Shown: positions 790-58,200 of the stretch, piece by piece
Position numbering within the stretch: position 1 is the first letter of the stretch
How the letters are laid out: each line of letters begins with the position of its first letter
Origin: Elsinoe ampelina
Lineage: Eukaryota
Length of the DNA: 62,079 nucleotides
NCBI GenBank assembly: GCA_010093995.1
Contig: ML992502.1
Location: 570,738-632,816 of the forward strand
Direction of reading: 5' to 3'
The notes under the pieces: generated by a model
What the model was told of the DNA's origin: nothing
The model's database searches: none
The model's input: only the letters and a program-made list of their open reading frames with translations
Position numbers and translations under genes: made by a program

Positions 790-2547
790 ATGGCGGAAGT
801 AAATGGTGCTCCTGCTGTCAAGGGCGTTGACCATCACGGTGAGGAGACTGTAAAGACCAATGCTGGTCTGCCACTGCGGACAGATGTCCCTCAACCCAAC
901 TTCACCGAGGAACGTGAGGGATGGAAAGGCTACATTGAATGGGAGGTGCGTGCTAGAAGACCGCCAAGTCTTGACCAGTACTCATCCCACGCCGTAGAAA
1001 TATCCTGAAAAGGCAAAGAAGGCAGAGCAGATTCTAGCCAAGTATGACTTTCCTCCACCTCCGGAATACCAGTCGGGACCGTTGCCCAAGACCAACCCTA
1101 TCCTGGAAGGCGTAAGATGGAAGCAGTACCATGCCGCCACTGGACTTGGACAACTTGTGGACATCAGCTGGGACTATGTCAAGAAGGAGAAATCCGAAGA
1201 CATGATCCACGTTCTACAATTCCCCTACAATGGCGAACCACCAAGGGTAAGCATACCATCCCCCCTCACCATCCTCCACTGACCTTCCTCAGCGCCGCCT
1301 TGTCGAAACCGAATTGACCTCCAACAAAGACTTCTTCGTCCGCAACCACGGCGGCGTCCCCGAGATCGACCCATCCGCCTACTTCCTCGACATCGAAGGC
1401 CTCGTCAAATCCCCCAAACGCCTCACCCTCTCCGACCTCAAAAACGAATCCCTCTTCCCCCGCAAATCCCACGTCGTCTCCCTCCAATGCTCCGGCACCC
1501 GCCGCATCGAGCAAATCGCCCAATACCCCGGCGACGGGGACGAGCTGATCAACGCCCCCTGGGGCGAAGGCGCCATCGGCACCGCGCGGTGGACCGGCGT
1601 CTCGCTCAAAAAAATCATCAAGCACTGCGGCGGCCTCGTCGACGAACAAGACGTGCACCTCGAGTTCTACGGCGCGGACACGTACTTCAAAAAGGGCAAA
1701 GTGTACAACTACGTCGTGTCCGTGCCGTGGCGCAAGGTGTCCCGCAACGAAGTCCTCCTCGCCTGGGCCATGAACGGGCAAGACCTGCCTCGCATCCATG
1801 GCTTCCCGCTCCGTACCGTGGTGTTTGGGTATATCGGCGCGAGGAGCGTCAAGTGGCTCACGCGCATCAAGGCGATTCGTGGGCCGAGTCAGGCGCCCGT
1901 GCAGAAGAAGGAGTATCTCTACTATACCCCGCAGGTGGGGAAGCAGAACGCGATGTACAGCAATGGGTTCAGCATCCAGGATATGCCGGTGAGTTCGGCG
2001 ATTATGACGCCGGTGGATGGGGAGCAGATTGTGCATGATGGGAAGATTACGCTGAGGGGTTGGGCGTATAGTGGTGGGGGCCACTTTCCGGCCAGGGTGG
2101 AGGTGAGTGGTGATGGGGGGAATATTTGGTATGAAGTCCCGCCGGAGAAGATGACGACAAAGTATTACTATGCGTGGAGGCTGTGGGAGATTGATCTGCC
2201 TGTTGATGCGGAGGGGTGGTTGGAGTTTTGTGTGAGGTGCTGGGATGATGCGATCAATACTCAGCCGACGTTTGTGAGGAGTGCATGGTGAGTTTTATCG
2301 AAGTGATGAAAGGGAGATGCTGACTGCTTGTAGGAATTGGGATCTGCATGTCACTTCCTCGTGTCATCGCATCAAGGTGTATTCGATGAACACCCAGAAG
2401 CAGACTACCGCGAACCGAATCAAGTTCTTGCAGGAAAAGGGTTTGTCCATGTACCCGCTATCGAGGCCCTTGGAGGTGGACCTGGAGTCGGATGAGCACT
2501 ACGAGCAGGAGATGGCAAAGCGAGGCCCGAGGGACCCGATCGAGTGA
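790..2547 (+). CDS. Sulfite oxidase-family molybdopterin oxidoreductase (Mo-cofactor + dimerisation domains, no b5 heme domain seen)
   Basis: Motifs FFVRNHG, LQCSGTRR (Mo-ligating Cys), HGFPLR, IGARSVKWL, GWAYSGGG. GT-AG introns 946-997, 1247-1292 and 2288-2333 join the ORF pieces in frame. Confidence 0.9.
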
Positions 2548-2645
2548 GCGTAGTTTCCGGTGCTGGGGTGTCATGAAATTCATTAGATGCTATATACACA
2601 CATACCCAATTCTCTTGTCATTCTTCATTCTACATGCACATCCTC

Positions 2646-4217
2646 TCACCCAACAAACGTCCCATTTCCCAGCACACTCCCCTGCCTCGCCACCCTCTGC
2701 GCCCTTAATTCACCCCCATTGAATTGCTGCACCACTACAGGACTCCCATCCACCATCCAGCCCCCCAACATGCCCCCGTCAACCTTTGCAAATGTCAAGA
2801 ACCCCCCATCCGCACTCCCCGGCGGCGCCGCCGTCGACGACGCCATCTTCAACGACCCATCCTCCCCCTCGAAGAAGACATACTGCACATTGGCTCCAGC
2901 ATCACCAACCGCAGAAATCGCCGTGCCCTTCGCGACCGCATTCCCCAACCGCCCCTCCCTCGTGGCACCCCACCCGCCCGTGCGTCCGTTGTTGGGGAGA
3001 TACCTATGCACCACCCCTCCCGACGTCGAGTTCCTATACCACACACTCGTCCACACCCCGGCGTCCCCGCTCGGCCCTGCCTCCTCCCAGCTGACACCAC
3101 ACCCCACCCCTGCCCCCGCTTCCGCGCCCCGGAAAACCTGCCCTTGCTCCCACCTTTCCCCTACGCCGCGCCGGTTCTGGTCCCAGAAGAGTTCTTGCAT
3201 CCACCCCTGGCTTTGGGCGAAGTAGAGCCTGGCGCCGAAAAAGTCGCCGGAAGGAGAGAAGCTAAACGGCACTGCGCACAGGGCGGAGGAAGTGGGGAAG
3301 AGCGTCATGTCGGATTGGGCGGGGGAGACGAGGGATGGGGCGGACCAGGTTTTCCCGGCGTCGGTGGTGAAGATTTGGGAGATGAGGAGGGAGGGGGTGG
3401 TGTAGAAGATGTGGCGGTAGGTGGTGGCGTTGGTGGTGTAGGTTATTGCGGAGAGGGGGGTGCCTGGGGCGGAGGAGGGGATGGGGAGGGCGGTGAGGCT
3501 GGACAGGGTGTAGGTTTCGGTGGAGGAGAGGAGGGACGAGACAGGGATGGAGGCTTCGAGGATGGTGGTGTTGGGATGTTGGTAGTAGAGGAGGAGGGTT
3601 TGGTTGTCCGGTGTGGTGGTGGTGGCCATGCCGGTGCGGTCGATGGAGAGGAGGGGAGAGGAAGAGTTGGTGTTTGGGGAGGTGTTGGTTGAGTTGGTGC
3701 TGTCGGCTGTGTCGTTTGCGTCGTGGTCGCTGCTTGGTGTCAGGTGGGTTGACGCGGAGAGGCCTGCAACTTACCTAGACTTGTTGAGCTGTGTTCCGAG
3801 CACGCCCCCGAGTACCGCACCAATCACTATCAGTAGTACGACACCTATTATGATGACTAGCTTCTTCGTGCGCCTGCTCTTTCGTGGTTGAGTGGCCCCG
3901 CCAACGTCGCTGGGTGGTCCATACTGGCCGCTGTGGGAAGGAGGATAGCCTTGAGATGGATATGGGGAGGCTGCGTCTGAATAGTAAGGAGCATAGGTCA
4001 CCACTTCTGGTGCATCATTCCGCTCGCTTGGAGCTACGATCTTCTGCTCCCCATCATGGTTCTGCGGAGACTTGACGGGTATGAAACCGGGATCTACCAG
4101 AGGTCCCTTGGTATCTGAAAATTGGTATGCTTCTTTGGTGGAAGCTCTGTCGTCGTCCTGTGCGTATGGCGGTTTGGGTGTTTGCGGACTCGATGTCGAG
4201 TAGGTTGAGGAATCCAT
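2646..4217 (-). CDS. Single-pass membrane protein with C-terminal fungal fucose-specific-lectin-like beta-propeller
   Basis: Exon 1 (4217-3775) encodes a cytosolic tail and TM helix (KKLVIIIGVVLLIVIGAVLGGVLG). Intron 3774-3730 (GTAAGT..CTGAC..CAG) joins it in frame (509 codons total) to the 327-aa ORF with propeller-blade-like repeats (GTPLSAITY/RHIFY, ARLYF, GTAISAV). Confidence 0.7.
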
Positions 4218-4896: not shown

Positions 4897-7215
4897 CTAA
4901 GCCATCCTCTCTTCATCTCGTCTCGGAGCCCAATTCTCAAGCCAGCTCCGTCCCTTCTCCAAGTCTCCTCCCTCTGCTTCGAGAGCAGCAACACACCATT
5001 CAAAGCTATACCCTTTCTTACCAAGCCTCTGCTCCGATTCCCTTTCAATCATGACCGCCCGCTCCCTTCGCCTTTGCGCCGACTCATCGACGCAGAAATG
5101 CAACGGGCTTGCACTCTCGGCGATTGCTCCTTCCACCCACGGCTTGGCCATTGGTATGGCCGTCTTTGCACTGCTGCCTTCATCTGGTAAGCCAGCGTTC
5201 TTGCGCCCCGTCTTGCAGAACTCGTTCGCGCACCAGGATTTGCCGCAACCAGTCATGAGTTGCTGCAGGTAACGACGTTCGATGCGCCGCTTCAGTGCTT
5301 TGCCTTCTGGGTCATGCATAGTGACGTAGAGGGGAGCGAAGCAGGCACTGCAGAGTCCGGTATCGTTACCGGTGTCTTTGCCGGTACGAGTGCTCCCGGA
5401 ATGGTTGGCTCCGTCTAGCGTATTGCCGCAATTGATATTCCTGCACACTCGCGGACGTGGTCGTGATTTGCGGTCTAGATCGTGCTGTTTCAAATGTGTC
5501 GCCATGTCGCGTAGACGTGTGATCCGATTGCAAAGATGACATTCGGTCGTTCGTCCACCATCAGCCAACTCGTGTGGCGTGAGACCGGAGAGAAGAGCTT
5601 CAGGGTTGGGCTCGTCGGGATCACCCTCTTGAGGTACCGTCAGATGACAGAAACGGCACAGTATCAGTTTGCCAGGGCATGTGGTGGTATGATGTTGCGC
5701 CAGAAGTGGTATCGAGCTGAATGTGTGTGTTGTAGAGCACCGCGTACACGAAAGAGGCTCTGAAGGATGGTAGAGAGAGTCGTGCTTGTGGCGCGTAAGA
5801 GGACTGTTGCCATAGTAAGTGTCGTGAGGGCAGTGCCAGTGTTCCTGAAACTCGTCCGATCGCCTTTGAAAAACCTGCCCACAACCCTGAGGGCAAAGTA
5901 CATTATTGCGAAGGCAAAAGTTCTCGTGTAGCATGAGAGTCCTTCCCGGTACCCACTGACCACAATTCTTGCAGCGGACATCGCCTTCATTGGGAGGCGC
6001 CTCATCTTGCATGACGACATCGACCGCTTCACTGGTTTCCAGGGGTCTTGCCCGAAGTGTGAAGGGCTGTGGTTCCGTAGATTGCGACGTATCGTCATCT
6101 GCCGACTTGAAGGCATATACAGACACGTAGAGTGCTTCAGCGTTCTCCAATGCAACGTTGATGGGCTGGAGCTTCACTCGTTTCGAGGGTCGATCTTCCC
6201 AGTCCGCAAAGACATAATTGTCGGCTCTTGGTCGGGATCGCTGGTACGCAGAGAAGGGACTGATCAGTAGATCAAGATCACTACCATCAGAAGGTCGGCT
6301 CAATTCAATCTCCAGTGGCTGGTCCTTTGGCCACGATGAGAGCTGGTAATCCACGTATTCCCCAGGAAGCACTTGCCCGGATTGCTGCTTGAAGATATCC
6401 AGATCGCCGCCTTTTGAGCTACTACTTTCGCCAGATGCGCCATTTTGATACTTGGCAGCTATGCGCTTCACCGTCTCCCGAGCTTGCTCTTCGTTCAGGG
6501 CCTCGATGTCCACCTCCAAATCCGTGTCCACCACGCAGATTGCCTCACTGTCAGGCTTGAATTCGTCGACCAAGAACCGAAATAGCTCGATCTTTTGACC
6601 CAGTGCACCTTCACCAGGTACTTCAAGGATCTCTCCTTTTGTCAGTGTGGTGAAGTTCGCTCGCATGTGCTGTCCAAGGAGTGCTTTCCAGTCCTCGACA
6701 TCATAGCCAGCTTCCAGAGGCCGTAGTTTGACGAAAGTGCCCTTGTCAAGCTCTCTGAAGTGGACCGTCACCGGTTCGCTCTGGTTTCCTGCCTCAGTCC
6801 CATCCTCGGACAATTGCTTGCCATCCCTCCCTAGCTCTTTCAGACCCAGTGCTTGGTGCAAGAATGGGCTTAGGACAATGGTCCCCTCTTCAGCAGTGAA
6901 TTCTCTGATTCCGGCATACACGACACTACCAGTCGCTGGGTTGATCAGTCGGAATGTGAGTGGTTGCGGTAGCTGTTGCTGCTGCTGTTGTGCCTGCGCA
7001 TTTTGAAGGTATGAGTTGTAGGCGCGACGATTCCACGGGTCATAAGTAGGCGCTGGTTCTGCGGAGGATGCTGCGGCACTGGCAGATGCGGATAGAAGTT
7101 GTTCAAGAGCTGAAGGGGGCAATATGATCTTGTCACCGGAGAGCTTGGTGCTTGACTCTAGAGGCAACGCATGGTATTGAGCCGTCCATTTTAATGCGGT
7201 TGCTTGGGTGGCCAT
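4897..7215 (-). CDS. UFD1-like domain protein with Cys/His zinc-finger repeats and AZUL-like zinc module
   Basis: N-terminal GDKIILPPSAL..PLTFRL..GIREF..KGTFVKLRP (UFD1 fold); CxxC..H..C repeats; QLMTGCGKSWCANEFC (AZUL-like); intronless 772 aa. Confidence 0.8.
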   Translation of the reverse strand: MATQATALKWTAQYHALPLESSTKLSGDKIILPPSALEQLLSASASAAASSAEPAPTYDPWNRRAYNSYLQNAQAQQQQQQLPQPLTFRLINPATGSVVYAGIREFTAEEGTIVLSPFLHQALGLKELGRDGKQLSEDGTEAGNQSEPVTVHFRELDKGTFVKLRPLEAGYDVEDWKALLGQHMRANFTTLTKGEILEVPGEGALGQKIELFRFLVDEFKPDSEAICVVDTDLEVDIEALNEEQARETVKRIAAKYQNGASGESSSSKGGDLDIFKQQSGQVLPGEYVDYQLSSWPKDQPLEIELSRPSDGSDLDLLISPFSAYQRSRPRADNYVFADWEDRPSKRVKLQPINVALENAEALYVSVYAFKSADDDTSQSTEPQPFTLRARPLETSEAVDVVMQDEAPPNEGDVRCKNCGQWVPGRTLMLHENFCLRNNVLCPQGCGQVFQRRSDEFQEHWHCPHDTYYGNSPLTRHKHDSLYHPSEPLSCTRCSTTHTFSSIPLLAQHHTTTCPGKLILCRFCHLTVPQEGDPDEPNPEALLSGLTPHELADGGRTTECHLCNRITRLRDMATHLKQHDLDRKSRPRPRVCRNINCGNTLDGANHSGSTRTGKDTGNDTGLCSACFAPLYVTMHDPEGKALKRRIERRYLQQLMTGCGKSWCANEFCKTGRKNAGLPDEGSSAKTAIPMAKPWVEGAIAESASPLHFCVDESAQRRRERAVMIERESEQRLGKKGYSFEWCVAALEAEGGDLEKGRSWLENWAPRRDEERMA

Positions 7216-8632: not shown

Positions 8633-10660
8633 ATGGCCGCTTTTGGTACGATGCATCATACTTCTCGGCAGACAAGTCTGGTCAGATACTAATATCATGG
8701 CATAGATACCCCTTGGATGACACTAATGACTGACCCTTCGTCTTCCGCACAAGGCGGTCTGGATGGAAATGACTCCCGTGCTCCTCAAACGACTGCTGCC
8801 TTCTCACCGCATACACACAACTCGGCGCGACAACAACGATCAACCATCTTATTGCACCAGAAGTCGCCTCTCCTTCTTGCGACACCACCTCAAGTAACGA
8901 GGGCATTGGCGTATAGTCATGCATTTCTGATACCTCTGAACAAGTTTGTCGGGTTGCTATCATGGACAACAGGGGATCCGTGGGAGAGCTTCCTCCTAGT
9001 CGCGTCGTTCTGGTTCACAGTACTATACGGCGATGTGATATTACGATATGCTGGACCACTCATTCTGGTCGTCTTCCTAATACTGGGCATGTACTTCCGG
9101 CGGTATTCTCCACTTTCATCAACTGGTTGGACAGGCGAGAAGAGCAAGACGCATAAACGTTCAGGTTCGGATAGTCCGGTGGAACATCGCAAATCACTGG
9201 ATGAGATATTGGCCACGCTGCAGGCTTTCACAGGGAGGTGCAACATCCTACTTGCCCCTATGATTCAGATGACCGACTTCCTGTCAACTCAACAGACCGC
9301 AACCTCCGCGACTACCCGACCTGCTCTCACCACTCTCTTCATCCGTATCCTTTTCGCATCTCCCTTGTGGTGTCTCCTGACTTTGCCACCACTACGCATA
9401 ATCACAGCCAAGCGGATAGTGTTCGCCGCTGGGACTCTGGTTCTATCATGGCATTCTAGACCAGCGCGAATCTCGAGAGCCATCTTGTGGCGGTCGCGTA
9501 CCGTTCGGGAGCTGGCATCCCTGCTCACTGGCCTAAATTTCTCTCTCGAGTCTCCTACAACGCCACGAACTACGGCATTTCCTGCATCCAACCTGACTGC
9601 TCTGAATGCCATGAAGTCCAAGTCACAAAACATACGGTTCACCTTTTCTGTGTATGAGAATCAACGTCGGTGGATCGGACTTGGTTGGACGTCAAATATG
9701 GTTGCCTACGAGCGAGCACCTTGGACGGACGAGCACTTGAACCCAACTTCGCCGCCGGACAAATTCCAACTTCCTGACATTGAAGGCGGTCATGCTAAAT
9801 GGCAATGGGTGCCTAGTTCGCAGTGGCGCGTGGAGCTTCCGACTGCCCCTTCTCCATCAGCCAAGGACAGCAACGTCAAAATCACAGACGATGACGCCTG
9901 GGTCTACTACGACAACAAATGGCTCAATGGAACCCGCGGCCAAGACGGATGGAGCAAATACACGAGACGGCGAAAATGGATCCGCGACGCCGAACTCGTC
10001 GACATCTCCTCCTCGGCCTATAATTCCAACCCAGCAAGCCCTGACCACCCCGCCACCGCCCCAGGCAACAGCCGCGACGGTAACCCACCCAAACGCGCCA
10101 CACCCCTCGACTTCTCCCAGTCCGACCCCAATGCCAATCCGACCCCAGCCCTTCCCAGCGCCCGGTCCCACCACCGCACCAACCTCTCCGTTGACGACGC
10201 CTCCCACCCCGACGCCCTCCACTTAGCAGGCACCACCGGCTCCGACGCCGCGAGCTTCATGTCCTCTCCACCTGGCTCCGCCCGATCAGGCCGCGCCTGG
10301 TTTGGCCGCAACAGAGGCGAATCCGATACGCTCTCCGTCGCTAGCACATCGGAAGGTCGCGTACGGGATAAACTCCGCCGCTTGTCCCCCGCGAGGAAGA
10401 TCGAAGACGTGAAAGGCCGGCTAAGGGGTGCAAGCGCTAGTAGCGTCACGCTCGGCGGGAGTCATGGCCACAGCCAGGCAGACTGGGAGGGTAAGGAGAG
10501 TGTGCGCAGCGCGAGGAGTGGCGGGAGTGGGGAGAGTGGGATGAGTGAAAGGGATAAGCGGCGGGATGAAGGGACTGATGTGTGGACTCCGACGGAAAGG
10601 TTGAAAGAACGACATGCGGATTGGGGGCTGGGGGAGGATGTTAGTATGGAGCTTGGGTAG
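8633..10660 (+). CDS. Pex23/Pex30-family peroxin (reticulon-like + DysF domain)
   Basis: LLSWT..PWESFL, YENQRRWIGLGW, WVYYDNKW..WSKYTRRRKWIRDAELV (DysF). Start inferred from exon 8633-8645 and intron 8646-8705, giving MAAFDTPWMTL. Confidence 0.85.
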
Positions 10661-11047
10661 GGAGCGTGTTTGTTTTTCTGACTTTTGCTAGCGATGAAGT
10701 GGGTTTTTGGATTGATATAGCGAGGCGCTTTGGGTGGGGTTCATTGGCACTGTTGATGTCACTGTCACGAAAGGGCGGGGCAGGCACGACGGCAGGGTGG
10801 AGGAATGAGTGGGTTTGGCTTAGATGTATGAATGAATGTTATCCACACTTCCACATTCCCTCTTTGAGCAATATCTCGTTGTCGAACGGTAGAATTGAAA
10901 GCGACGAATGGAGGGTCCAGTCTGGTGTTGTGCGTCAAGAAGAGTATCCCCTATCCATCATGTCCATCCCGGTTTGCCCACGGGCGAGTGATCTATCCTT
11001 GTCAATACCCCTTCGTCGAGGACGGATCTGAGGGCAGGAAGGCGTAC

Positions 11048-11113: not shown

Positions 11114-11255
11114 GATGAAGTAGGTTGTTGGTTGGATTGGGGATTGTTGAAGTTTGCAGTGGTAGTGATAGACCGTAGTGATACAGTAGTATTGTAAGGC
11201 TCGATAGGAGAGCAGAACTAACGAGGAGATGCAGAGATACTTATACCCCTCTCCC

Positions 11256-11285
11256 TCACCTTCACCTTCACCTTCACCTTCACCC
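11256..11285. repeat. (TCACCT)5 microsatellite just upstream of the metallothionein TATA box
   Basis: Direct reading: tcacct tcacct tcacct tcacct tcacc. Confidence 0.85.
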
Positions 11286-11368
11286 CTCAACCCCCACCTC
11301 TTACCCAAGGTCCCAAGCTCGACCTCCCAGCCTACCTGACTGGCTCACTCGGACCCACACCAACACCT

Positions 11369-11400
11369 GCACATGCAGCACAAAGCACATGCAGCTCGAA
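11369..11400 (-). promoter_or_regulatory. Tandem Ace1/AceA-like copper-response elements (putative)
   Basis: Direct 11-bp repeat GCACATGCAGC at 11369-11379 and 11385-11395. On the minus strand these read TTCGAGCTGC and TTTGTGCTGC, matching HTHNNGCTG (the following base is C rather than D). Confidence 0.4.
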
Positions 11401-12822
11401 TCCTGCTGCGGCGTGGGACGCGCGAGGGTGAGCACGGGGACCAATCGGGGTGTCCCTCGGGATGTGCGATGTAGGGCCGGGATCAGCGTACCGTGGGAGC
11501 GAGACTGCCACGAACGTACGGCTGTCACTGTCACTTTGCACGGGAGGTCACTCTGCTACGTAGTCACCGGACAGGGGAGCGGGGAATCGGGTGGACCGTA
11601 TCTTCGGGAGTGACTTGAGAGGCCGGCGCCGGAGGCTGGGCCTGGGAGGTGGTCATGGGATGGAGGGGGGCAGATAAGGGGATGTGTTGTGCAGGCAGGC
11701 AGGCAGGTCATCGGATGGAGGGAGGGGCGAGACAGACCGCAGTAAACTCTGCTTGTTTCCATGTGCGAAGCATCGAGTGGGCAGGTGAGGTCGGGAGGCG
11801 AGGGGGTCGTGCCGGTTTGGATTGTGGTTCGTGGAAGAGGTTCCAGGGATCCACTGGGGCCGACGAGGCGTGGTGGATCTGCTTTTGGCGCGGTGTGATG
11901 TGCCCCCGCGCCCAGAACGGTCGGACGTGGTTGTGGGCTTGCTGGCAGGAGCTGGGTCGGTGCTGATGTGGGATGGAGGAGGGAATGCATTTGGTAAGAG
12001 GTTGGATGGAAGAGATAGGGACTTGATTGTACAGGCACGTGGCGGGCGGTTTTGGAGGTGATTCTGGAAGGTGATGCTGGTGGTTGGCGAGGTGAACCAT
12101 GGTTCGTGAGCCAGTTGCCGGGCAGGGCCACTCAACCATCAGAGAACTTCACCGCTTGTTTGGCATGCTGAAGACTCGACCAGATCTTGCTGTTGTCTGC
12201 CGTCTGAAGATATATCATTTGCTTCAACGCGCAGGCATGTGATGGAGGCTCCGGACATGTATCGAGACCCGATGTTACCTGCTCAGACCCGACGACAGCC
12301 GTGCGTGGGAGAGTGCAACCCAAGGCGGAAGTCACCGACAGCACACTGAGCACAGTCAGCTGCGAGGTCGATCACTGAATGATCGGCTGTCCGAGACGAG
12401 CAAGACGAGCCTCGAACAGGCTCTCTCAGCTACGTGTGGGTGTGCGGCTATCAACAACGCCGCAGCATTGGCCGGCTTCAGCTCGTGACCTGTTGGAGAA
12501 GAGCTTCTCCAAATGCCGGGCACCTCGATTTCAGATCGTAGAGGTCATGACTATTATGCAAGGTTGAAGAGCTGTTCCTGCAGCTTGTGAGGAAGGCAAG
12601 TGATGATAGCTCGGAAGAAAGTACACCGAGTGTCGGAGAAGTATCACGTCGATGTACGGGAGAGCAGCTTTGGATAAGTCCCCCGAGCCGTGAGTCTTTC
12701 TCGATCATCTTCATTATCTGGCCTGCAGCTGAGTCGTACAAGACTCGGGTATATGTAGTAAGTATATATGTACAGTGAGGAGAAGGTGACACAGCATAAA
12801 TGAAAGGGAAATGCTGCTTCCT

Positions 12823-40539: not shown

Positions 40540-40563
40540 GCGCGTACCTGACACGAAACGCGT
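40540..40563. promoter_or_regulatory. Overlapping SCB/MCB-like cell-cycle elements in a divergent promoter
   Basis: CACGAAA (40552-40558) overlapping ACGCGT (40558-40563), plus GCGCGT (40540-40545), about 100 bp upstream of DUO1. Confidence 0.5.
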
Positions 40564-49725: not shown

Positions 49726-51339
49726 ATGTCTTTCATACCGCAGCCTCTTCGACTGTCTAGATCCAAACAAGACCCGTCATTGTCAGCTGCCCCGTCTCGA
49801 TACCCATCAACTAGCACCACAGCCGACGCCCCTAGGTGCTCGCCACCTTCACAAGCATCATCGCGCGGGCAGCCATCGACAGTAAGGCGGACATCGCTGT
49901 CTGCCTTCGGTCATTTACATACTATCATAAGAAGAAGTTCTTCGACCAATACTGTGATTCACGAGGAGGGCGCAGGTGATGGTATAGCCTTTGGGGACAG
50001 AATTGTAAAGGAAGACGCAACCCAGAGCCGACAAATGAGTCCACTCACAAAGAGCACATCTCCAGATAAGACCAAGGCTGCCAGGCGTGGATCATGGATA
50101 CCGCTACCGGAGCAGACGACTCGTGCTCTTCCAAGAAGCATGACCTTGGGCAACCTCGGGAGCATTTCTCAAAGCCCTCGCGACCGCAAGGAAGAGCGTC
50201 GGCCTGACGAATCACGACGACAAGGTCGATTTCTTCCCGATGCAATCGCGGGAGCCGAGAGACCAAGTTTCAGATCTCGCATACCTTCAGCACCAAAGGG
50301 GATCCTGAGGAGCAGCTACACGCGACCACTTCCTCGCTCCGATACAGAACCGCTGCTACCACCTCTTGGAGGTGCTACATCGGGACCCACGCCCGGAAAA
50401 GACAACGTACTACCACGTTCGCTCACGCATTCGAAACTCACCATTTTTCGTGAACGCACCAATGAAAAGCCACTTCCACCGTGTCCAGGTCGACGGAGCA
50501 TCTCCACGACTAGAAGTCCGACTGATGACAAGCTGCGACTCAAGCATGCAGTGATAAAGGAAAACAAGACTCACAGCGACCCACCAAGAGCAAGGCTGAT
50601 AGACATTCCGCGTCGAGTTTTGCCTCGTTTCAACACACAGCCCAATCTTGCCGTCAACACTCCAGCGACACCACTTTTCCGGGCAAAGTCTCGTGCGGTG
50701 GAGATCAAGCACCACGCTCTACTTTCTCCTAAACCGCCTCCGAGTCCTGTGCAGCGTACTCCACTGTCATCGGTCACCAACGTCCAGCGTTCAGCTTCGC
50801 GACTGAGACTGTCACGTGACAAGGAGAGTCCTGTCACGCCTATTCCCAGGTCGACAACTCCAGCCGAAGCTCCATCGCCAGAGACCTTCAATCCGGCGGC
50901 AATCATCAATGCTCAACCAATACCATACTGGGTTGGGCGCTTCCTCTCACAGCTCGACCGCTGGAGAACCGCCGATTTTAACAGGCGCAGCACAGCTTCG
51001 TCTTGCTCGCTTCCAAACTCCACGTTTGGTGCCGGCCAAGAGATGGAGCAGAGAGAGCAGTATCGCCATATTTTGTGCTCATTATACGCGGACTGTGAGA
51101 GCGAGGACGCCAAGGGGAGTCTGCAGCTCTTCTATTCCTATCTGAGGGCTTTGCATGTCAAGACGGCAGTCGGCGAAGAGGTAGGCGTGGCAGAGGGAGT
51201 GTCATGGGGCGAAATCTGTAACGAAGGGGAGCTGGTCAGAAGGAGAAATCAGAGGGGAGATAACACTCCCGACAGCTTGGGAAAGATGAGGAGGGGGACA
51301 TTCATGGAGAGGTTACTGGGAAGGAGGGCAAGGATGTGA
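49726..51339 (+). CDS. Hypothetical protein (basic, disordered N-terminus; folded-looking C-terminal YWVGRF..LDRWR domain)
   Basis: Intronless 537-aa ORF; no family recognised. Confidence 0.7.
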   Translation: MSFIPQPLRLSRSKQDPSLSAAPSRYPSTSTTADAPRCSPPSQASSRGQPSTVRRTSLSAFGHLHTIIRRSSSTNTVIHEEGAGDGIAFGDRIVKEDATQSRQMSPLTKSTSPDKTKAARRGSWIPLPEQTTRALPRSMTLGNLGSISQSPRDRKEERRPDESRRQGRFLPDAIAGAERPSFRSRIPSAPKGILRSSYTRPLPRSDTEPLLPPLGGATSGPTPGKDNVLPRSLTHSKLTIFRERTNEKPLPPCPGRRSISTTRSPTDDKLRLKHAVIKENKTHSDPPRARLIDIPRRVLPRFNTQPNLAVNTPATPLFRAKSRAVEIKHHALLSPKPPPSPVQRTPLSSVTNVQRSASRLRLSRDKESPVTPIPRSTTPAEAPSPETFNPAAIINAQPIPYWVGRFLSQLDRWRTADFNRRSTASSCSLPNSTFGAGQEMEQREQYRHILCSLYADCESEDAKGSLQLFYSYLRALHVKTAVGEEVGVAEGVSWGEICNEGELVRRRNQRGDNTPDSLGKMRRGTFMERLLGRRARM

Positions 51340-51540
51340 TGCATCGGCACTTCATGGCCGCAAACGAAGAATGAGCCAGCATGAAATCGACTGTTCCGAG
51401 ACGAATCAAAAGAGCGCGGTAGATCTGGGAGACAGAGAAAGCACACTTACAAGGACGAGCAACAGCTCCTATACAACTATCATCATAGACTTCATCAGCA
51501 TTGCGTTACATACATCTCCGTCCCTCCTCCCTCAGCCACT

Positions 51541-52074
51541 TCACAACTTCTCCCCCTCCCCATCAGGCTTCACCTTCCCCTCCACCACCTCCAACACAAA
51601 CTTCACCCCCTCCTCGGCAAATCTCAACATATTCTCCACCCGATCCTTACTCCCCGTCTCGACCTCCCTCGTCCAGGTCCCCCCCTCCCCCACCACCGCC
51701 AAAGCCACATACCCGGGCGTCCTATTCCTCGTGTTCCCCCCCGTCGGCCCCGCCGTCCCGCTCTCAGCAAGGACCCAATCAGCCCCTAATTTCCCGCGGA
51801 CATTGCTCGCCAAACCTGACACGACAGAAGGCGTAGGCCCACGGTAGGCGTCGAGATCGGACTGCGTCCACCCGGCGAAGGCGAGTCGGGATTCGAGCGT
51901 GTAGACCGTGAGGCCGCCGCGGTAGATCTTGGAGGCGCCCGGGGTGGAGAGGAGGGAGGAGGAGAGGAGGCCGCCTGTTGCTGTTTCGACGAAGGTTATG
52001 GTTTGGGTGGCGGTGTGGAGGTGGGTTGCGAGGCGGGTGATGTGGGGGAGGAGGGTGGGTGGGGGGAAGGACAT
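51541..52074 (-). CDS. CinA C-terminal / PncC-like domain protein
   Basis: ITFVETATGGLLSSSLLSTPGASKIYRGGLTVY, AESGTAGPTGG, PGYVALAV; likely ATG at 52074. Confidence 0.82.
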   Translation of the reverse strand: MSFPPPTLLPHITRLATHLHTATQTITFVETATGGLLSSSLLSTPGASKIYRGGLTVYTLESRLAFAGWTQSDLDAYRGPTPSVVSGLASNVRGKLGADWVLAESGTAGPTGGNTRNRTPGYVALAVVGEGGTWTREVETGSKDRVENMLRFAEEGVKFVLEVVEGKVKPDGEGEKL

Positions 52075-52649
52075 GGTGGGTGATTTCGGGGCGGGGGGTT
52101 GTGGCGTGGATTGGAAGGATGGAGGTTCAAGGGTGAGGGTGTCGAGTGGTACTGATGAGGGAGGAGTGAGGTCTGTGAATGAAGGGAAAGGAAGGGAGGG
52201 AGAGGAGAGGGATTGTAGATTCGGGTATGTATGGATTGATTGGTAAAATTGGGTAGATTTGGAGAAGCTGAGCTCGAGATTACGGTGCTTCGTATGGTGA
52301 AGAAGGAAATTATCTACGGTTGACCATAGCATGATCTGCTTAGTAAGATCTGCCGTATTGTATCGTTACATCGTCAATTATCAGAACACCTGCTCGCCGT
52401 CTGATCCATTTCCACCTCAAGCGCCACAATGGGCTGTTTCGAGCTGTTCGCTGGTGAGAGTATTGCAGCTGCAAACGATGAGTCTCGCCTCGTCCAAAGC
52501 ACGTTTGATGTCGTTACACGCCTTCATTCGGCCCCGGTAAGGTCCATCAACCGACGCTTGTGCACATGCGCCTTGTGCAGGTATGTACATGTTTCGAGGG
52601 CCCCTTTGTGCTTGTGAGTCTCTCGTCTGTACTGTGTCATTACCCGGTA

Positions 52650-54869
52650 ATGAGCATGGGACTACTGAACTTAGTGGCTCTGCTATGGCAGATTGCTTGT
52701 CTGCTTGGATTCTCACTCGCAGACCCGATCACTTCGAAATCCTCACGATGCAGCAACAACCTACGAGTTGTCAAGCAACTCAAGTCGAGTGTTTCCAGTC
52801 CTGGCCAATTACTGGCTGAGAGATACGAAGCGACAGAGGACCCCTTTCAAAGGGTTCAATGCCGACGCCGTCTTTCAAGCTTGCAGATACGTGCGCGCCA
52901 CCCTTAGCCTCGGCAGGAATCCTGTAGTCACACGCCTGCCTCTCCCAACTGGTGCTGGACAGTGTTTGGCTACGGATACCGGGGTGGAGCTCGTAAGGGA
53001 CGCAATATCAGACCCTGCTGCGTTCTGCAAATATTGGATGGTTAGGTGAGTGGTCTGAATTCTTGACAATGGGAATAGCAATTGACTTCTGGCAGGAAGG
53101 ATAGATCATCCAGTCCTTTCAATGGGATCGCTCCAACGAAAATCTCTAGTGTTTGCGCCTGCGCGGTCAAGACGCCGGCGGTATTCAGTATTTCAGCGGA
53201 TCCTGTCACCAGCTCAAGCTCCCGCACTGCAATCACCTCTTCTGCTACCAGCACAACCTCCAAGGCATCTCAACTTTCCAGTACTGCTACAGACACATCT
53301 CCTTCTGCCCAGAGTCATACGTCCATGGATCCTCAAGATGCTCCTCCTATCGCTTCAGCATATCCCCCTCTACCCACAGGTGCAGATCCGGAATATGCCA
53401 AGAACTATTCTATGGCGGCGTCATTCGTTGCAGAACCTGCAGTCTCGACAGCGAAGTCGTTGCAGCTCCCGCACGGACGGCCGTACTTACGGCTATCTTG
53501 CCCCCAACAATCGATCCTTTCGACCCGGATCTCCTCATACCATCCGTGAATCAATCGCTCTACTTTTCGGACCCTCAAAACACTGGAGGCACCATCAAAG
53601 TCAGTCCACGCTTCGACCACCCTGCTGTTCTCGTGGACCAGACCAGTCTCATAACAAGCGTGAAATGTGTCGGTGATGGAGTGGACATTGCATTGATGGA
53701 TGACGTGGCTATGCAAACAGCCCTGGATGCATGGTCGAGCGTGCTGCCGATGCTGCTGGTAGGGTCGCTTGAAGATTGTCCGGATAGCTCCAGCACCGCC
53801 CCGGTCTCACCGTCGGATGGAGAATCCGATAAGACGATCAAGGTCGCACTTCTGAGCTCGATTCCTCGCAAACCTCTTGCGAGATCTGATGGGCCAGATC
53901 TGATCGCCAAACCAGCTGCGGGTAGTGCGTTCTCGGCCCCAGCCAGGATCGACAAGTTTCAGACAGTATTCAGCAAAACGTCCCTAGCAAGCAGCGCGGA
54001 CGCTTTGAATGTAAATTTTGATGCCAATATCGGCGACCTACTTCCGGCAGCAAAGATCGAAGTCTATGGTCACAAGCATAAGCGGTCTCACAACTAGCAC
54101 GGCCACTAGCAGTATGTCATCTACCCGTATCGTGGTTACGAGCGCGAGTATCGTGCAAGCTGTCTCCCCAACGGCATCAGTCGCCAACTCTCCAGTCACT
54201 GTCACTATCACTTCAATGAACACGACGACCATCACATCGGCCTTTATCTCTACAGCTACGATCACGAGTACTTCAACGGCCACTTTGATTAGTACAGCCA
54301 CAAGTATTGCAACCGCGACGATCACCAACGTATCACCAACCACCGTGACCACAACGGCAAGATCAACCTCCATCTCCATCTCCACCTCCTTCCTCCCAAC
54401 CGCGATCTCCATCACCGTAGCCTCCGGCGCCAGCATAGCCCCAGTGACAACCACAGTCACCAGCGTCTCCACAACCACCACAACAGCCACAACCACGTCC
54501 ACCGCAATCTCGACAACCACAACCACAATCGCAACTACAACCACAACAACCCGCCCCACAACCCAAATCGCGACCATCTCCTGCGTACCCTCCCCCAACA
54601 TGAAAACCTCCAACGGCCAGCTCTGGAAGATCTCCACTACAGACGACTGGTCTCTATGCGTCGGCTCCGCCGCCTCCGCGGCCGCAACACTGGACGAGTG
54701 CGTCGTCCGCTGCGCGACCTACGGCACCGACTGCAAAGGTATCGTGTGGGTCGCTCAGGGACAGGCGCAGCAGTACTGCTACCTCGTGGCGAATGCCGCG
54801 ACGTCGAGGCCGCTTGGGCAGGGGTTGACGGCGTACAGCGCGATTAGGTCCGGGGGGGTGGCGTGTTGA
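52650..54869 (+). pseudogene. Apparently frameshifted gene for a secreted Cys-repeat / Thr-rich / PAN-apple-like protein
   Basis: Signal peptide MGLLNLVALLWQIACLLGFSLA; protein-like sequence jumps frame near 52803, 53452 and about 54070 with no canonical intron signals; one real intron 53046-53095; C-terminal TLDECVVRC..CKGIVW..CYL. Confidence 0.6.
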
Positions 54870-55277
54870 TCTTCAAGTGGTAGACGAGGGTGTTTTGCAA
54901 GTGAGTGGTTTGATGAGAGGGCAAGGCAAGAGGGGGGACAGGGGTTGCAGTCGGGATGTTTTGGATGGCACATCGTACATGACCAGATGAAGTCTGTGGT
55001 TGAGACGGCTGGTTGGTGTAAACCATTGCTGGTAGGCCTCAGTGTGATACTACCAGGGTCGAGCCATCTTCTAAGCGCAAGCAAGTCCTCCTTGCGCATC
55101 ATCGCCGATGATATCCCCTCTCTCCATCATAACAGCCACACTCGGCTTACTTAGATTGAGTGCAAGGAAACATGCTGGTCACGAAGTCTACCATGATTTA
55201 CCAGGGATGCAGTGAACAGACGAGCCATCAGTTTGAGGTATAATTGAAGCTGGTAGTACCATCTCTCAAACTCCCAC

Positions 55278-58200
55278 TCACTTCCACCCCACAGCCCCAT
55301 TCCACCAAGCCCCCACCTCATCCTCCCTCTCCTCATCCGCCCCCGTACCCACCACCACTTCCTCCCTCCTCTCCCTCCCCGCCAACCTCTTCGCAACCTC
55401 ATTCGCCTCCGCAAGCGAGCACAGCTTCCTCTTCCCCTGCCCCTGCTCCTCCGCCCTCTGCCTGACAACATCCCACACCCTCTTCGCCTGACTCCTCTTG
55501 TCCCCCTTTTCAACGAAACACACCGCCGGCTCCTTGAGTATCCCCGTCTCCCTGCGTCCGTAGTAGTACGTATCCATTCCCGGTATCGCGGGCGGGTTAT
55601 CGAACATTTCACTCAGGAACTCGTCCTCGGCGACTTCGAACGGGGTGCGGCCCGTGGCGTCTTCGCGCCAGAGAAAGTCCGGGTTGGCGTCCAGGAGAAC
55701 GGGGATAAATGCGTCGTGGCCGTGGCGAACGCAGTGGTGCAAGGGAGTTTCGCCGGCGCCGTTGACGGAGGCGAGCTCGGCTCCGCCGGTGAAGGAGAGG
55801 ATGGTGCGGAGGTAGTTGATCATGTGCGGCTCGACGTCTGATCGGGTCTTGCTGGAGGGGCTGGCGTAGTGAGGGAAGTTGGAGCGGGCGCTTCCGAGCC
55901 ATGCTGCGAAGGGAGTGAGGGAGCCTGGGTTGTGGGAGGAGCGTTCGATGGCGAGTGAGGAGATGAGGCGAGGGTCGATGAGGGAGAGAGTCTTGCGCAA
56001 TTCGTCGGAGTCTTCGGGATCTTGGCCGTTGAAGTATTCGACTGCGAGGTGGAGGATGTTCCGTCCTCGCGCATCTCGCGCGGTTTGGTCTGCATTTGCT
56101 TTGATGAGAATTTCGATCACGTCTCTACGGTTAAGAGAGAAAGCAACAAGTAGGGGAGTGAAACCGTCTCTACTTCTCGCTTCCAGCTGTTCTGGTAGTT
56201 TATTGATCAGGTAAGAGAGCAACTTGAGCGAGTCTGGGGTACGCTTTCCCATAATGACACAGTGCAGAGCTAGGTGCGAGCGAGCCGACAGCCACCCTCC
56301 AAGGGCAGCCTGTAGTCCGCCTTGAGCCTCAGCCAGAGTCTGGAGGCGTTTGTCATGGCTGTGTTTCTCTGCAAATTCCTGGTAGTTTCGAGTCGCCGTG
56401 TCTGACAGAAAGTACTCTACTAAATCGAGCGATCCAAGCCGACAGGCTTCCAGCAGAGGAGGATGGCTATTGTCGATCGGCTTGTAGGTAGTAACACCTC
56501 CCGCTTGCGCAGCCCAGTCAGCTCGCTTCTTACCATAGACAGACAGACCCTGGTAGTGTTTCGGCTTCTCCTGGACCTCGACGCCGGATTTCTCGACCAA
56601 TGCGTCAAGAGGAATGCCTGCTCCGGTTCGTTGCACTACCAGACCAGTAAGGGTTGTACGATTAAGCTGGATGGCTCGCAGGAAGTCCGTTTGTGGAAAG
56701 ACAAACAGTGACGAAGATTCATCGTTGATCTTGGCTGTGATCTTTGTGTACTTCTCTGCCAAGTCAAGAAGCCAAGTGAGAAGTGGCTGGTCATTGTTGT
56801 GAATCGCTAGTTGAAAGAGGTTACCAGGCTTACCGTTCGGGTACTTCTCCTCGTCATCGACGTCTTCGATTGGTCTGTCGCCCAGCCCAAGAGAAGATAG
56901 GGCGTCACGGACGGTTGCCAGTGCCACATTGGGTGAGCTGCCAGTCAGATCGAGCTCAGAGTAGTCCTGCGCAGGGCAAGGCCATTGCATCATCGTTGTT
57001 GGGCTGACTTTACTCTTGACCTGTGACTGCACAGCGCCAATATCGTCAATAGTGAACGAGACGTTCACTAGGCGGGAATGGATCCTGACCTCATCGGGAT
57101 CCTCGTCCTCGTCTTCCGAGTGGTAGTACTCGTCCGAGTCTTCGCGATTGAGCGTGTATTTCGTTCTGGTAGTGTTTTCTCCGTCTTTGGTGTATTGAGC
57201 CTGGGCAATTTCCAGGATAGTCTCTGCAAGCTTGAAATGACCTCGCAAGACGGCGATGGAGAATGGCGAGAAGCTGAGCCCATCGGTCACTGCAATCTGC
57301 AGGGGCGATTGATCCTCGTCAAATACTACCAGAGTAAGATTCCTGGTAGTAACTTCGTCGTTTTCCCAGCAAGCCTGGAAGAGGCGGTCATAGGCCTTCT
57401 TGCGGGCGTCTGTGAGTCCTCGAATGGAGTACGATGTATTGGGCTCGAAAGGTTTGAGGGGTGGCGGGGTGTACTTATAAGGCTTGTAGTCATCGGTAGC
57501 CTCGACATCTGGATATAGAGCTTTCAACGTCTTACCACCCATGTTCACAACCTTTTGCCGAAGTGATTGGAACTCCTTGACGAGCTTATCGATAGCTTGT
57601 TGCTTTTCAACGACGCCCTTCCTCTGTTCACGGTCGTTCATGGTATCCTGGTAGGTCTTCATGCGTTGCTTGTGACTCTTCCTTTCTTGCTTGACTTCAA
57701 TCAGAGTGCGCCAGTACTGGTAAGTACCATGTGTCATGCCAGAGGTGTAAGAACTGTCCGATTTAAGAGGTAGAGGTTTCTGAGGTTCATCCTCGTCGTC
57801 CTTCCACTCTTGTAGCTTCTCGATCTTCTTATCCACTCGGTCGAGCAAGGTACCAACTGGCTCGTAGACGTAGTGAGAATTCTCAAGCACCTTTTCCCAG
57901 GCTCCTGGGGTCAAAGTATTGACATCTGCCCCGGCATCAAGCAAAGTCACGGCCAGACTAGGCAGCTCCCTTTCCACAGCCAGAATGATGGGCTGAGTGA
58001 CAGTCTTTTTAAACTTCTTGTTCTCATCAGTATCAGACCAGTCCTTTGACTTCATTGTCTCGATGAACGCATCGGCGCTGATGTTGGGCTCAAGTCCGGC
58101 ATCCAGAATAATCTTTGCGCATTCAGGCTGATTTCCCTCGATAGTACTTTGCAACGGGCCCTGCACGCTTGGTCTCCAGTCCGAGCCCTTGATAGCGAGA

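Follow-up and report, generated by a model that had tools for sequence, protein, structure and literature searches.

The window (the whole 62,079-nt stretch analyzed, from the plant-pathogenic fungus Elsinoe ampelina) contains 14 islands in which the + strand changes from C-rich to G-rich within about 1 kb. The islands are real, their polarity is fixed, and they are confined to genes. They probably represent gene-bound strand-composition dipoles that arose from a substitution bias tied to the transcription unit, an extreme form of the 5'-C/3'-G skew of fungal genes.

Skew dipoles in the window

The whole 62-kb window was segmented using a three-state HMM (neutral, C-rich, G-rich). A total of 31 arms, namely 16 C arms and 15 G arms, were found, together covering 13.8 kb of 62 kb. 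The median arm length was ~406 bp for C arms and ~437 bp for G arms (range 158–724 bp). The arms formed 14 C-to-G dipoles, 12 of them with directly abutting arms and two with a neutral gap (428 and 246 bp), and three arms stood alone. The 14 islands delimited by eye in the initial annotation were all recovered, with edges off by 1–219 bp, and the 12 abutting switch points differed from those read by eye by 2–44 bp. The polarity claimed there also held: all 14 dipoles were C-to-G, with no reverse dipole and no G-to-C abutment in the HMM segmentation of the window (two-sided binomial P ~1e-4). Ten shuffles within 3-kb blocks yielded 0–3 arms versus 31 in the real sequence. A contrast scan with sliding ±400-bp windows revealed 15 C-to-G switches with a contrast of at least 0.5 (12 of them at least 0.7) and 12 G-to-C switches of that size, all 12 of which were outer island edges or lay between two adjoining islands. 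An assembly artefact was ruled out, as spliced contigs of two other studies match the islands with 0–1 differences.

The dipoles and lone arms (HMM coordinates; arms as read on the + strand unless noted) are as follows.

Dipole 1, 1207..2341: C arm 1207–1559, neutral gap, G arm 1988–2341; sulfite-oxidase-like gene, + strand (ATG 791, stop 2547; Pfam Oxidored_molyb/Mo-co_dimer); spans exon 3 (1294–2290) and both flanking introns, gene-internal, away from both gene ends; third-position skew -0.8 to +0.8.
Dipole 2, 2637..3762: C arm 2637–3207, G arm 3208–3762; last exon of a lectin-like gene, - strand, from the 3' splice site at ~3730 to stop 2646.
Dipole 3, 9982..10818, switch 10393: final 680 nt of the Pex24 CDS, + strand, and ~158 nt beyond the stop (10660); the C arm begins 1265 nt downstream of the ATG.
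Dipole 4, 11246..12127: C arm 11246–11403, G arm 11404–12127; no recognisable gene (ORFs of only 74–144 aa, no Pfam hits); TATA-like cttata immediately left of the dipole edge.
Dipole 5, 19002..20027, switch 19502: entire HRI1 gene, + strand (ATG 19018, stop 19933), including its introns 19079–19130 and 19251–19305, both confirmed by spliced contigs; strongest skew of the window (-0.46/+0.71).
Dipole 6, 23073..24149, switch 23499: two 3' exons and intron 23737–23796 of a sugar-transporter gene, - strand (stop 23137); right edge 31 bp from the next intron (24180–24232).
Dipole 7, 27436..28426: C arm 27436–27778, gap, G arm 28025–28426; anchored at the 5' end of a metallo-beta-lactamase-fold (MBL) gene, - strand (ATG ~28453), with the coding-strand G arm mid-gene; contigs of two studies stop nearby, at 28506/28521.
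Dipole 8, 28781..29838, switch 29466: last exon and ~150 nt of 3' UTR of the cytochrome c heme lyase gene, - strand (stop 28932, intron 29868–29918).
Dipole 9, 30787..31821, switch 31348: anchored at the 5' end of an MFS transporter gene, - strand (ATG ~31758); the coding-strand G arm ends ~490 nt upstream of the stop (30298).
Dipole 10, 34840..35683, switch 35242: 5' UTR and first exon of a cyclase-family gene, + strand (ATG ~34939, 5' splice site ~35711).
Dipole 11, 42925..43878, switch 43252: GPI-type protein gene, - strand (stop 43155); 3' UTR makes up most of the C arm, and the G arm corresponds to the C-terminal coding part, rich in Pro/Thr/Ser/Ala; low complexity of the protein contributes to this dipole.
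Dipole 12, 51513..52306, switch 51874: entire CinA-domain gene with UTRs, - strand (stop 51541, ATG ~52077).
Dipole 13, 54164..54968, switch 54738: 3' part of a Thr/Ser-rich protein gene, + strand (stop 54869); low complexity contributes to the C arm.
Dipole 14, 55259..56058, switch 55642: final 780 nt of a 5.2-kb ankyrin-repeat gene, - strand (stop 55278); the ATG is 4.5 kb away from the coding-strand C arm.
Lone C arm, 4902..5140: 3' end of a UFD1-like gene, - strand, thus G-rich on the coding strand.
Lone C arm, weaker (skew -0.31), 40547..41272: 5' region of a + strand gene, ORF from 40910.
Lone G arm, 51165..51341: 3' end of a + strand gene (stop 51339), followed by a 171-bp spacer and dipole 12.

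Base composition and position in genes

In the left arms, C amounted to 0.42 and G to 0.18, and in the right arms G to 0.46 and C to 0.15, while the background was 0.26 each; GC content was 0.57–0.66 in the islands versus ~0.52. The skew peaked at fourfold sites, whose base frequencies were as follows.

C arm: C.61, G.12, A.17, T.10
G arm: C.14, G.64, A.09, T.13
Neutral DNA: C.29, G.23, A.24, T.24

The predicted A/T component (C/A, then G/T) was borne out in weaker form: at fourfold sites A exceeded T in C arms and T exceeded A in G arms. The most depleted fourfold base was the transition partner, namely T in C arms and A in G arms. Third-position skew reached -0.9 and +1.0. The skew was said to persist in introns and at synonymous sites, and a check of fourfold, intron and UTR sites confirmed this; the 14 intron and UTR pieces within islands had pooled skews of -0.54 and +0.62, as strong as in coding DNA. 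Fourfold GC rose from.52 to.73–.78 in the arms and intron/UTR GC only to ~.55, a difference that one uniform mutational force does not predict.

The initial annotation had held that transcription direction does not explain the islands and that some lie in intergenic DNA. Neither view was upheld. Since a C-to-G dipole is its own reverse complement, the same polarity in + and - genes is expected of a pattern linked to gene direction, and the coding strand indeed reads C-rich upstream, then G-rich downstream, in genes of both orientations. A single gene span ±250 bp contains the whole island in 13 of 14 cases (null mean 7.8, P 0.0026), and in 13 a CDS start or stop is found within 250 bp of an outer edge (null 8.7, P ~0.014), P values that are modest and refer to our own approximate gene models in one window. 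The supposedly intergenic parts are UTR-sized extensions of 9–230 bp, and the skew in the 400 bp outside each island edge is neutral (-0.28 to +0.25). Outer edges track gene ends or introns, and each of the three lone arms occupies the gene end that its sign predicts. Dipoles 5, 7, 8 and 9 are covered, with 0–1 differences, by contigs from which GT..AG introns are spliced out; these contigs, used as transcription evidence, are unstranded. Contigs of two studies stop 54–95 nt past three island edges, a weak hint that transcripts end there.

The arms are more than markers of gene ends. Nine of the 14 dipoles end at the 3' end of a gene, and at least seven have one arm remote from the gene end to which it would belong: the Pex24 and ankyrin genes have their C arms 1.3–4.5 kb from the ATG, the sugar-transporter gene has its C arm within the 3' exons, and the G arms of the MBL, MFS, cyclase and sulfite-oxidase genes are in mid-gene. 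A simple model of initiation and termination zones therefore misfits, unless cryptic or antisense transcription units exist. About half of the genes in the window carry a dipole; the other half, including Sam50, Timeless, RCC1, anoctamin and others, lack one, with no rule apparent.

Possible origins of the dipoles

The reading that we favor is a substitution bias, which could be a mutation or repair asymmetry or biased fixation. Within one transcription unit, it would drive ~400 bp toward C on the coding strand and the directly following ~440 bp toward G. It would act on every class of sites, not on the protein, and would be tied to the structure of the transcription unit. Chemically, the two DNA strands would be treated unequally during transcription, the G/T-rich strand being the one kept single-stranded or lesion-bearing. 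In the downstream arm this would be the non-template strand of sense transcription, and in the upstream arm that of antisense or cryptic transcription. Such a bias could reinforce itself, since R-loops and G4s are favoured when the non-template strand is rich in G; the restriction of the window's canonical G4 motifs to arms (see below) fits this reading.

It is unlikely that the dipole is an adaptive RNA or transcription element selected for its effect. Candidate effects are pausing or termination of Pol II at a G-rich, C-poor stretch through R-loops or G4s, in the sense and, mirror-wise, the antisense direction; an elongation pace set by C avoidance (the CTP hypothesis); and pairing of the mRNA 5' half with the 3' half. 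The arms are predicted to be strongly prone to G4 and R-loop formation, as had been proposed: the window has 18 canonical G4 motifs, every one of them within an arm and on the G-rich strand, and none was found in the 48 kb of neutral DNA. Besides these motifs, the nine dipoles that end at gene 3' ends and the force that overrides protein composition (Trp 3.1-fold) speak for selection, as does the CinA transcript, in which 90% of the predicted base pairs join both arms versus 18% after whole-sequence shuffling. A CTP/collision-avoidance idea was also put forward in the part of McLean and Tirosh (2011, BMC Genomics 12:638, PMC3315797) used here. However, three or more genes (MBL, MFS, cyclase) have their G arm mid-gene with 340–600 nt of CDS still downstream, where a terminator would be harmful, and a 5' ramp is contradicted by the ankyrin gene, in which a C-rich block lies 4.5 kb from the ATG. 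Folding energy beat within-arm shuffles in only one of seven islands tested (z of -8.2 for HRI1 and +0.7 to -1.6 for the others, 7–8 shuffles each), so there is no specific complementarity, and no long inverted repeats were found.

A recombination footprint is quite improbable. It would require recurrent meiotic or mitotic double-strand breaks at the switch or in nucleosome-free gene-end DNA, followed by resection, after which strand-biased repair synthesis and GC-biased mismatch repair would raise GC and enrich one strand in G. W-to-S conversion bias would give both the rise of fourfold GC from.52 to.73–.78 and the depletion of the transition partner. Arm lengths of ~0.4 kb are comparable to those of resection tracts, and five intergenic spacers of 171–427 bp are flanked by arms on both sides. 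Nevertheless, seven of 15 anchored edges face neutral DNA across the spacer, and in four of these 600 bp or more hold no gene model; the process thus lacks symmetry about gene-end DNA. Switches fall in exons and have no motif in common, introns and UTRs are skewed yet gain little GC, and 14 hotspots in 61 kb, each within one gene, would be unusual.

It is very improbable that the islands are a by-product of protein composition, with Ser/Thr/Pro-rich N-terminal and Gly/Glu/Val/Trp-rich C-terminal parts and codon choice following. Composition does contribute in the C arms of dipoles 11 and 13, which lie in Thr/Ser/Pro-rich coding sequence, and an amino-acid-implied dipole of 0.25–0.53 was found in all 26 aligned heme-lyase sequences (the window and 25 homologues). 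The initial annotation had held that protein sequence does not explain the islands, and as a sole cause composition is indeed contradicted, both by the site classes (the skew peaks at fourfold sites and is just as strong in introns and UTRs) and by the ankyrin gene. In its C arm the amino-acid-implied skew is -0.06 (-0.20 to +0.07 in 16 orthologues), whereas third positions reach -0.7 to -0.8; the arm is not imposed by the protein. The skewing force instead rewrites proteins and feeds into amino-acid usage, with Thr and Pro (2.1–2.2-fold), Trp (3.1-fold) and Gly (2.1-fold) enriched in the matching arms. The amino-acid-implied dipole of HRI1 is 0.78 here, 0.58–0.66 in two other Elsinoe/Sphaceloma species and 0.12–0.32 in eight more distant homologues; judging from these sequences, the HRI1 protein has shifted toward the skew within the Elsinoe lineage, which also argues against a by-product.

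Replication origins, the points from which leading- and lagging-strand synthesis run apart in bacterial chromosomes and mammalian N-domains, are rejected as extremely improbable: the C/A-to-G/T polarity on the + strand is that expected of an origin and equals that of bacterial origins and of the mammalian replication-associated skew jumps reportedly described by Touchon et al. in 2005, but there are 14 switches in 61 kb (one per 4 kb), on a scale of 0.4 kb versus tens to thousands of kb; the switches lie in exons of genes that are transcribed, with arms below 0.75 kb (158–724 bp), edges that follow gene ends and neutral DNA beyond. No motif shared by the 14 switch points was found. The exonic switches, uneven arm lengths and gene-tracking outer edges also lend no support to a process acting outward from a centre, as had been suggested, and a double-strand-break hotspot at the centre is unsupported.

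Relation to known skews and to other fungi

Transcription-associated mutational asymmetry enriches the non-template strand of mammalian genes in G+T, and in yeast AP sites are bypassed by Rev1 on the non-transcribed strand; such asymmetries are small and uniform along genes. The coding strand of the G arm is likewise G+T-rich and poor in C and A. However, the upstream arm of opposite sign and the sharp bounds are not predicted by this asymmetry.

Mammalian GC skew and R-loops (see also Wahba et al. 2016, PMC4911931) offer a further comparison. The dipoles resemble mammalian blocks in being kilobase-scale, GC-rich, strongly skewed and tied to transcription units, with a G-rich non-template strand at 3' ends, and their C-to-G polarity on the + strand is that of a bidirectional CpG-island promoter. 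In mammals, however, the stretch that immediately follows the TSS is G-rich on the coding strand, whereas here it is C-rich; unlike at CpG-island promoters, the switch lies inside exons, and the R-loops here are predicted.

The closest known pattern is the opposite GC skew of 5' and 3' gene ends in fungi (McLean and Tirosh, PMC3315797), whose species list includes filamentous Dothideomycetes. In the parts of that article used here, the coding strand favours C in its upstream and G in its downstream part, fourfold sites are affected, the skew reaches into UTRs, amino-acid usage is shifted with Trp enriched at 3' ends, and the strength differs among lineages with its cause unexplained; the pattern described here shares these features. 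McLean and Tirosh describe genome-wide averages with gradual ramps at both gene ends, an intermediate middle and a uniform A>T. Here, in contrast, the pattern is per-gene with sharp bounds, skews of ±0.4 to 0.7 and one base at 60% of fourfold sites, AT skew flips with the arms, the arms are coupled into ~0.9-kb dipoles often at one gene end only or gene-internal, and about half of the genes carry none. The amplitude, the sharp bounds and the coupled dipoles away from one gene end are new relative to that description.

The islands had been called position-fixed, which agrees with the alignment of dipoles 8 and 9 in a related species (92.5% and 91% identity, i.e., 7.5–9% divergence). Environmental heme-lyase loci show a rise of third-position skew from the N-terminal to the C-terminal part in 79 of 80 cases (range -0.05 to 1.20). 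The rise in the window, 1.28, is the highest, above all 80 environmental fungal orthologues. Across these fungal sequences the pattern grades continuously, with the window at its extreme.

Gene content and skew dipoles of the window

The window is nuclear DNA of a filamentous ascomycete. Gene models were built from open reading frames, Pfam frames and intron-skipping contigs; the contig evidence is unstranded, and the runs X3 and X4, which contain contigs that skip introns, were presumed to be RNA. The introns have the form gtaag...ctaac...ag and are skipped by contigs from other runs. Pfam analysis revealed typical fungal genes, namely those for a sulfite-oxidase-like protein, Pex24, Pam16, Sam50, HRI1, cytochrome c heme lyase, MFS and sugar transporters, RCC1, Timeless and CinA. 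Elsinoe is the genus named in the best protein matches; HRI1 and the ankyrin protein have 100% identity, along the part that aligns, to records labelled Elsinoe ampelina, and the heme lyase showed 95% identity to that of E. batatas and 80% to that of E. australis. The gene spans of our own models cover ~74% of the window. The convergent sulfite-oxidase-like (+) and lectin-like (-) genes have stops ~100 bp apart (2547-2646), so that their 3' UTRs probably overlap. An AT-rich block (61250-62079; GC 0.30) has a RIP-type dinucleotide signature, with TpA/ApT of 1.92 and (CpA+TpG)/(ApC+GpT) of 0.37 (0.58 and 1.26, respectively, at 40000-61000), and is probably the border of a repeat mutated by RIP.

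A sliding ±400-bp contrast scan revealed 15 switches from C-rich to G-rich sequence in the window. It also revealed 12 G-to-C switches of similar size, every one of which was the outer edge of an island or the junction of neighbouring islands. Segmentation using a three-state HMM gave 31 arms, which form 14 C-to-G dipoles (12 abutting and 2 with a neutral gap) and 3 lone arms, and no abutting G-to-C pair was found in the window; shuffling within 3-kb blocks yielded 0-3 arms. All 14 islands that the initial annotation had proposed by eye were recovered, with edges within 1-219 bp and abutting switch points 2-44 bp off. The left arms contain 0.42 C and 0.18 G, the right arms 0.46 G and 0.15 C, and the background 0.26 of each. 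Intron-skipping contigs of two other studies match the islands with 0-1 differences, and therefore the islands are not assembly errors.

Dipoles numbered along the window, with the strand and the gene concerned
1, +, sulfite-oxidase-like
2, -, lectin-like
3, +, Pex24
4, no recognisable gene
5, +, HRI1
6, -, sugar transporter
7, -, metallo-beta-lactamase-fold (MBL)
8, -, cytochrome c heme lyase
9, -, MFS transporter
10, +, cyclase-family
11, -, GPI-type
12, -, CinA
13, +, Thr/Ser-rich
14, -, ankyrin

The islands are not copies of one another, as a blastn comparison among the 14 gave three short hits of 35-42 nt. Inverted repeats or hairpins were also rejected, since four islands yielded only 13-30-nt arms of 70-92% complementarity. 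The arms contain few stop codons, and most islands consequently have long spurious ORFs (150-370 aa) on both strands (for example, 1251-2294, 2646-3770 and 34804-35733).

Silent sites, proteins and gene borders

At fourfold sites of the coding strand, C reaches 0.61 in C arms and G reaches 0.64 in G arms, compared with 0.23-0.29 for all four bases outside the arms. The initial annotation had named the vanishing of the skew at synonymous and non-coding sites as grounds for abandoning the islands, and the opposite was found: the fourfold skew is -0.68 in C arms and +0.64 in G arms, and pooling of 14 intron and UTR pieces located inside islands gives -0.54 and +0.62. In segments of 50 codons, the third-position skew goes as far as -0.9 and +1.0. 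Thus, the skew peaks where the protein sequence imposes the least constraint. The most depleted fourfold base is the transition partner, namely T in C arms and A in G arms. Fourfold AT skew flips between the arms (A.17 > T.10 in C arms; T.13 > A.09 in G arms), and fourfold GC is.73-.78 in the arms versus.52 outside.

Protein composition follows the arms, with Thr enriched 2.2-fold and Pro 2.1-fold in C arms, and Trp 3.1-fold and Gly 2.1-fold in G arms. The C arm of the ankyrin gene is not imposed by its protein: the skew implied by the amino acids is -0.06 (-0.20 to +0.07 in 16 orthologues), and the third positions have -0.7 to -0.8. The island part of this gene (55281-56058) is less conserved than the rest (56059-60533), with 55% versus 78% identity to E. 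fawcettii and 45-50% versus 65% to E. australis, and the tail is less conserved in distant outgroups too.

The identical polarity in + and - genes is expected of a pattern linked to gene direction, because a C-to-G dipole is its own reverse complement. In all 13 dipoles with a gene model and in all 3 lone arms, the coding strand is C-biased upstream and G-biased downstream. The proposal that the islands are independent of gene structure did not hold, as 13 of the 14 lie within a single gene span ±250 bp (random mean 7.8, P 0.0026). In 13/14 dipoles, an outer edge is located at most 250 bp from a CDS start or stop, the median distance being 81.5 bp versus 186 expected (P ~0.014). Nine dipoles are anchored at the 3' end and five at the 5' end; dipoles 5 and 12, each of which spans a whole short gene, are counted in both groups. 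The island parts outside the CDS are UTR-sized (9-230 bp), and contigs of two studies stop 54-95 nt beyond three island edges, which weakly hints at transcript ends. The 400 bp past each edge are neutral (skew -0.28 to +0.25). The lone arms are G-rich on the coding strand at two 3' ends and C-rich at one 5' end. Inner edges coincide with introns at both sides of dipole 1 and at one side each of dipoles 2, 6, 8 and 10, and small introns within arms do carry the skew; nothing evident as a motif was found at the internal edges of the dipoles.

At least 7 of the 14 dipoles have one arm located far from the gene end where it would be expected. The C arm starts 1.3 kb (Pex24) and 4.5 kb (ankyrin) 3' of the ATG, mid-gene G arms are present in the MBL, MFS, cyclase and sulfite-oxidase genes, and dipole 1 is entirely internal to its gene. 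Because the arms are often far from the expected gene ends, C and G arms behave as a coupled unit of ~0.9 kb. About half of the genes, including those for Sam50, Timeless, RCC1 and anoctamin, have no dipole. Dipole 4 (11246-12127) contains no recognisable gene, only ORFs of 74-144 aa and a 191-aa frame without a Pfam hit; a TATA-like 'cttata' adjoins this dipole on the left. Dipole 4 may correspond to a small, rapidly evolving gene or a non-coding RNA.

Conservation and alternative explanations

Dipoles 8 and 9 can be aligned with a related species, from which they differ by 7.5% and 9%, respectively. These two dipoles are thus older than the species split, which agrees with the initial suggestion that the islands are fixed in position. 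Among 40 of the 252 differing places, those within two arms that are C-rich on the + strand include 10 cases in which the window has C and the relative T, and 2 of the reverse, which is too few for a spectrum. In HRI1, the dipole implied by the amino acids amounts to 0.78 in the window; two other Elsinoe/Sphaceloma species have 0.58 and 0.66, another relative has 0.48 and eight more distant homologues have 0.12-0.32. This series shows the skewing force building up in the protein. Ten residues (VRGEGEVGKE) encoded by an open frame in the G arm (19721-19750) are missing from the public HRI1 model of this species. An X4 contig starts at 19735, within this stretch, and continues unspliced, so the in-frame intron of the public model may be a gene-caller artefact of G-rich low complexity.

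All 26 aligned heme-lyase sequences have an amino-acid-implied dipole (0.25-0.53), and therefore part of this island is ancestral. In 79 of 80 environmental heme-lyase loci, the third-position skew climbs from the N-part to the C-part (range -0.05 to 1.20), and the heme lyase of the window shows the highest rise (1.28). HMM analysis of 77 distinct environmental loci gave 62 C-to-G versus 15 G-to-C abutments, a count dominated by the query gene. It follows from the comparison of heme-lyase loci that the skew occurs generally in fungi, in graded form, and that this lineage represents the extreme.

Among the alternatives, a recombination footprint, i.e., a hotspot with GC-biased conversion, has some support, namely the rise of fourfold GC from 0.52 to 0.73-0.78 in the arms and five short spacers that have arms on both sides. 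However, the far side is neutral at 7 of 15 anchored edges, the islands keep to single genes where a hotspot footprint would ignore gene borders, and the centres have no motif. A search for a shared motif at the switch centres found none, the best 6-mer occurring in 5 of 12 centres versus 6-9 of 12 in displaced windows. The neutral far sides of the anchored edges also rule out a symmetric process centred on intergenic DNA.

An adaptive element acting as a terminator, in pacing or through 5'-3' RNA pairing is weakened by the mid-gene position of G arms and by complementarity no greater than composition gives in 6/7 islands. Specific 5'-3' RNA pairing was rejected, as the predicted pairs are mostly inter-arm and the energy is no better than that of within-arm shuffles in 6/7 islands. 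In single-strand folding, the arms are predicted to pair with each other, accounting for 90% of pairs in the CinA transcript (51513-52306). The folding energy of HRI1 (19002-20027) is 8 SD below within-arm shuffles, an excess that the other five islands tested do not have. An R-loop element of the CpG-island type would have a G-rich non-template strand just 3' of the TSS, whereas the coding strand of the 5'-anchored arms (dipoles 5, 7, 9, 10 and 12) is C-rich.

Replication origins, which the initial annotation had offered as one reading, are rejected on scale, density and position: at an origin the skew persists across the replicon on both sides, and origins are intergenic, nucleosome-free, tens of kb apart and have a shared element, whereas the dipole arms are only 158-724 bp long with neutral flanks and the switches, 14 in 61 kb, are exonic.

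Relation to published gene skew and possible mechanism

The dipoles are real and striking, but they are a variant of an already known fungal gene skew. McLean and Tirosh (2011; PMC3315797) describe a 5'-C/3'-G coding-strand skew of fungal genes, averaged over genomes, with filamentous Dothideomycetes among the species covered, and leave the cause open between mutational regimes and CTP or collision avoidance. As described there, the published skew and the dipoles have in common the sign, the presence at fourfold sites, the reach into UTRs and the effect on amino acids (PMC3315797). A three-regime model (C at the 5' end, G at the 3' end, intermediate middle) fits dipoles 5 and 12 and the lone arms; at least half of the dipoles have one misplaced arm, and dipole 1 is internal. 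In addition, the published AT skew is roughly uniform along genes, with A>T, whereas that of the dipoles flips between arms (PMC3315797). Relative to that description, the dipoles differ in their amplitude, sharp bounds and coupled arms, in being placed at one gene end or internally, in their absence from about half of the genes and in the flipping AT skew. Beyond that study, no such blocks were found described for Elsinoe or other filamentous fungi in the literature outside paywalled journals.

No site class escapes the force that produces the dipoles; this force is restricted to genes and has remained stable through speciation. We infer that it is an asymmetry between the strands in mutation or repair, linked to transcription. 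The signature of the G arms, which are poor in C and A and rich in G and T, would correspond to a non-template strand that is exposed or lesion-bearing, and the C arms show the mirror image of this signature, as would be the case if transcription there were mainly antisense or cryptic. All 18 canonical G4 motifs (G3+N1-7 x4) are located in arms; the G arms contain 11 of them, on the + strand, and the C arms 7, on the - strand, and none was found in 48 kb of neutral sequence. The density of G3+ runs, as sequence propensity, is 45 per kb in the skewed blocks versus 8.5 per kb. Because of this extreme density and the location of all G4 motifs in arms, the strand exposure is proposed to be self-reinforcing.

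A bolder reading, which we consider unlikely, is that the dipoles are a self-reinforcing, transcription-coupled hypermutation state. A stretch that is G-rich on the non-template strand would form R-loops or G4s that expose this strand, lesion bypass would turn more bases into G, and the stretch would run away to an "on" state limited by transcript ends and introns. The downstream arm would arise from sense transcription and the upstream arm from antisense or cryptic transcription. If such a state exists, every dipole would be the mark of two Pol II dwell or termination zones that converge. The dipoles would then constitute mutational domains of a new kind, heritable and fixed in position, which rewrite the proteins of perhaps a third to half of fungal genes here through gains of Trp, Gly, Thr and Pro.

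The skew also has practical effects. Arms distort codon-usage and selection statistics, the spurious ORFs in islands are a trap for gene callers, and short-read assemblies break at the low-complexity arms, leaving loose contig ends. The cause of fungal gene skew has been unexplained since 2011, and this genus is far better suited than yeasts for finding it, because here the skew is sharply bounded and is on or off per gene. A force that holds 60% of silent sites at one base and triples tryptophan across stretches of half a kilobase is a major determinant of how the genes and proteins of these fungi evolve, and an essentially unstudied one.
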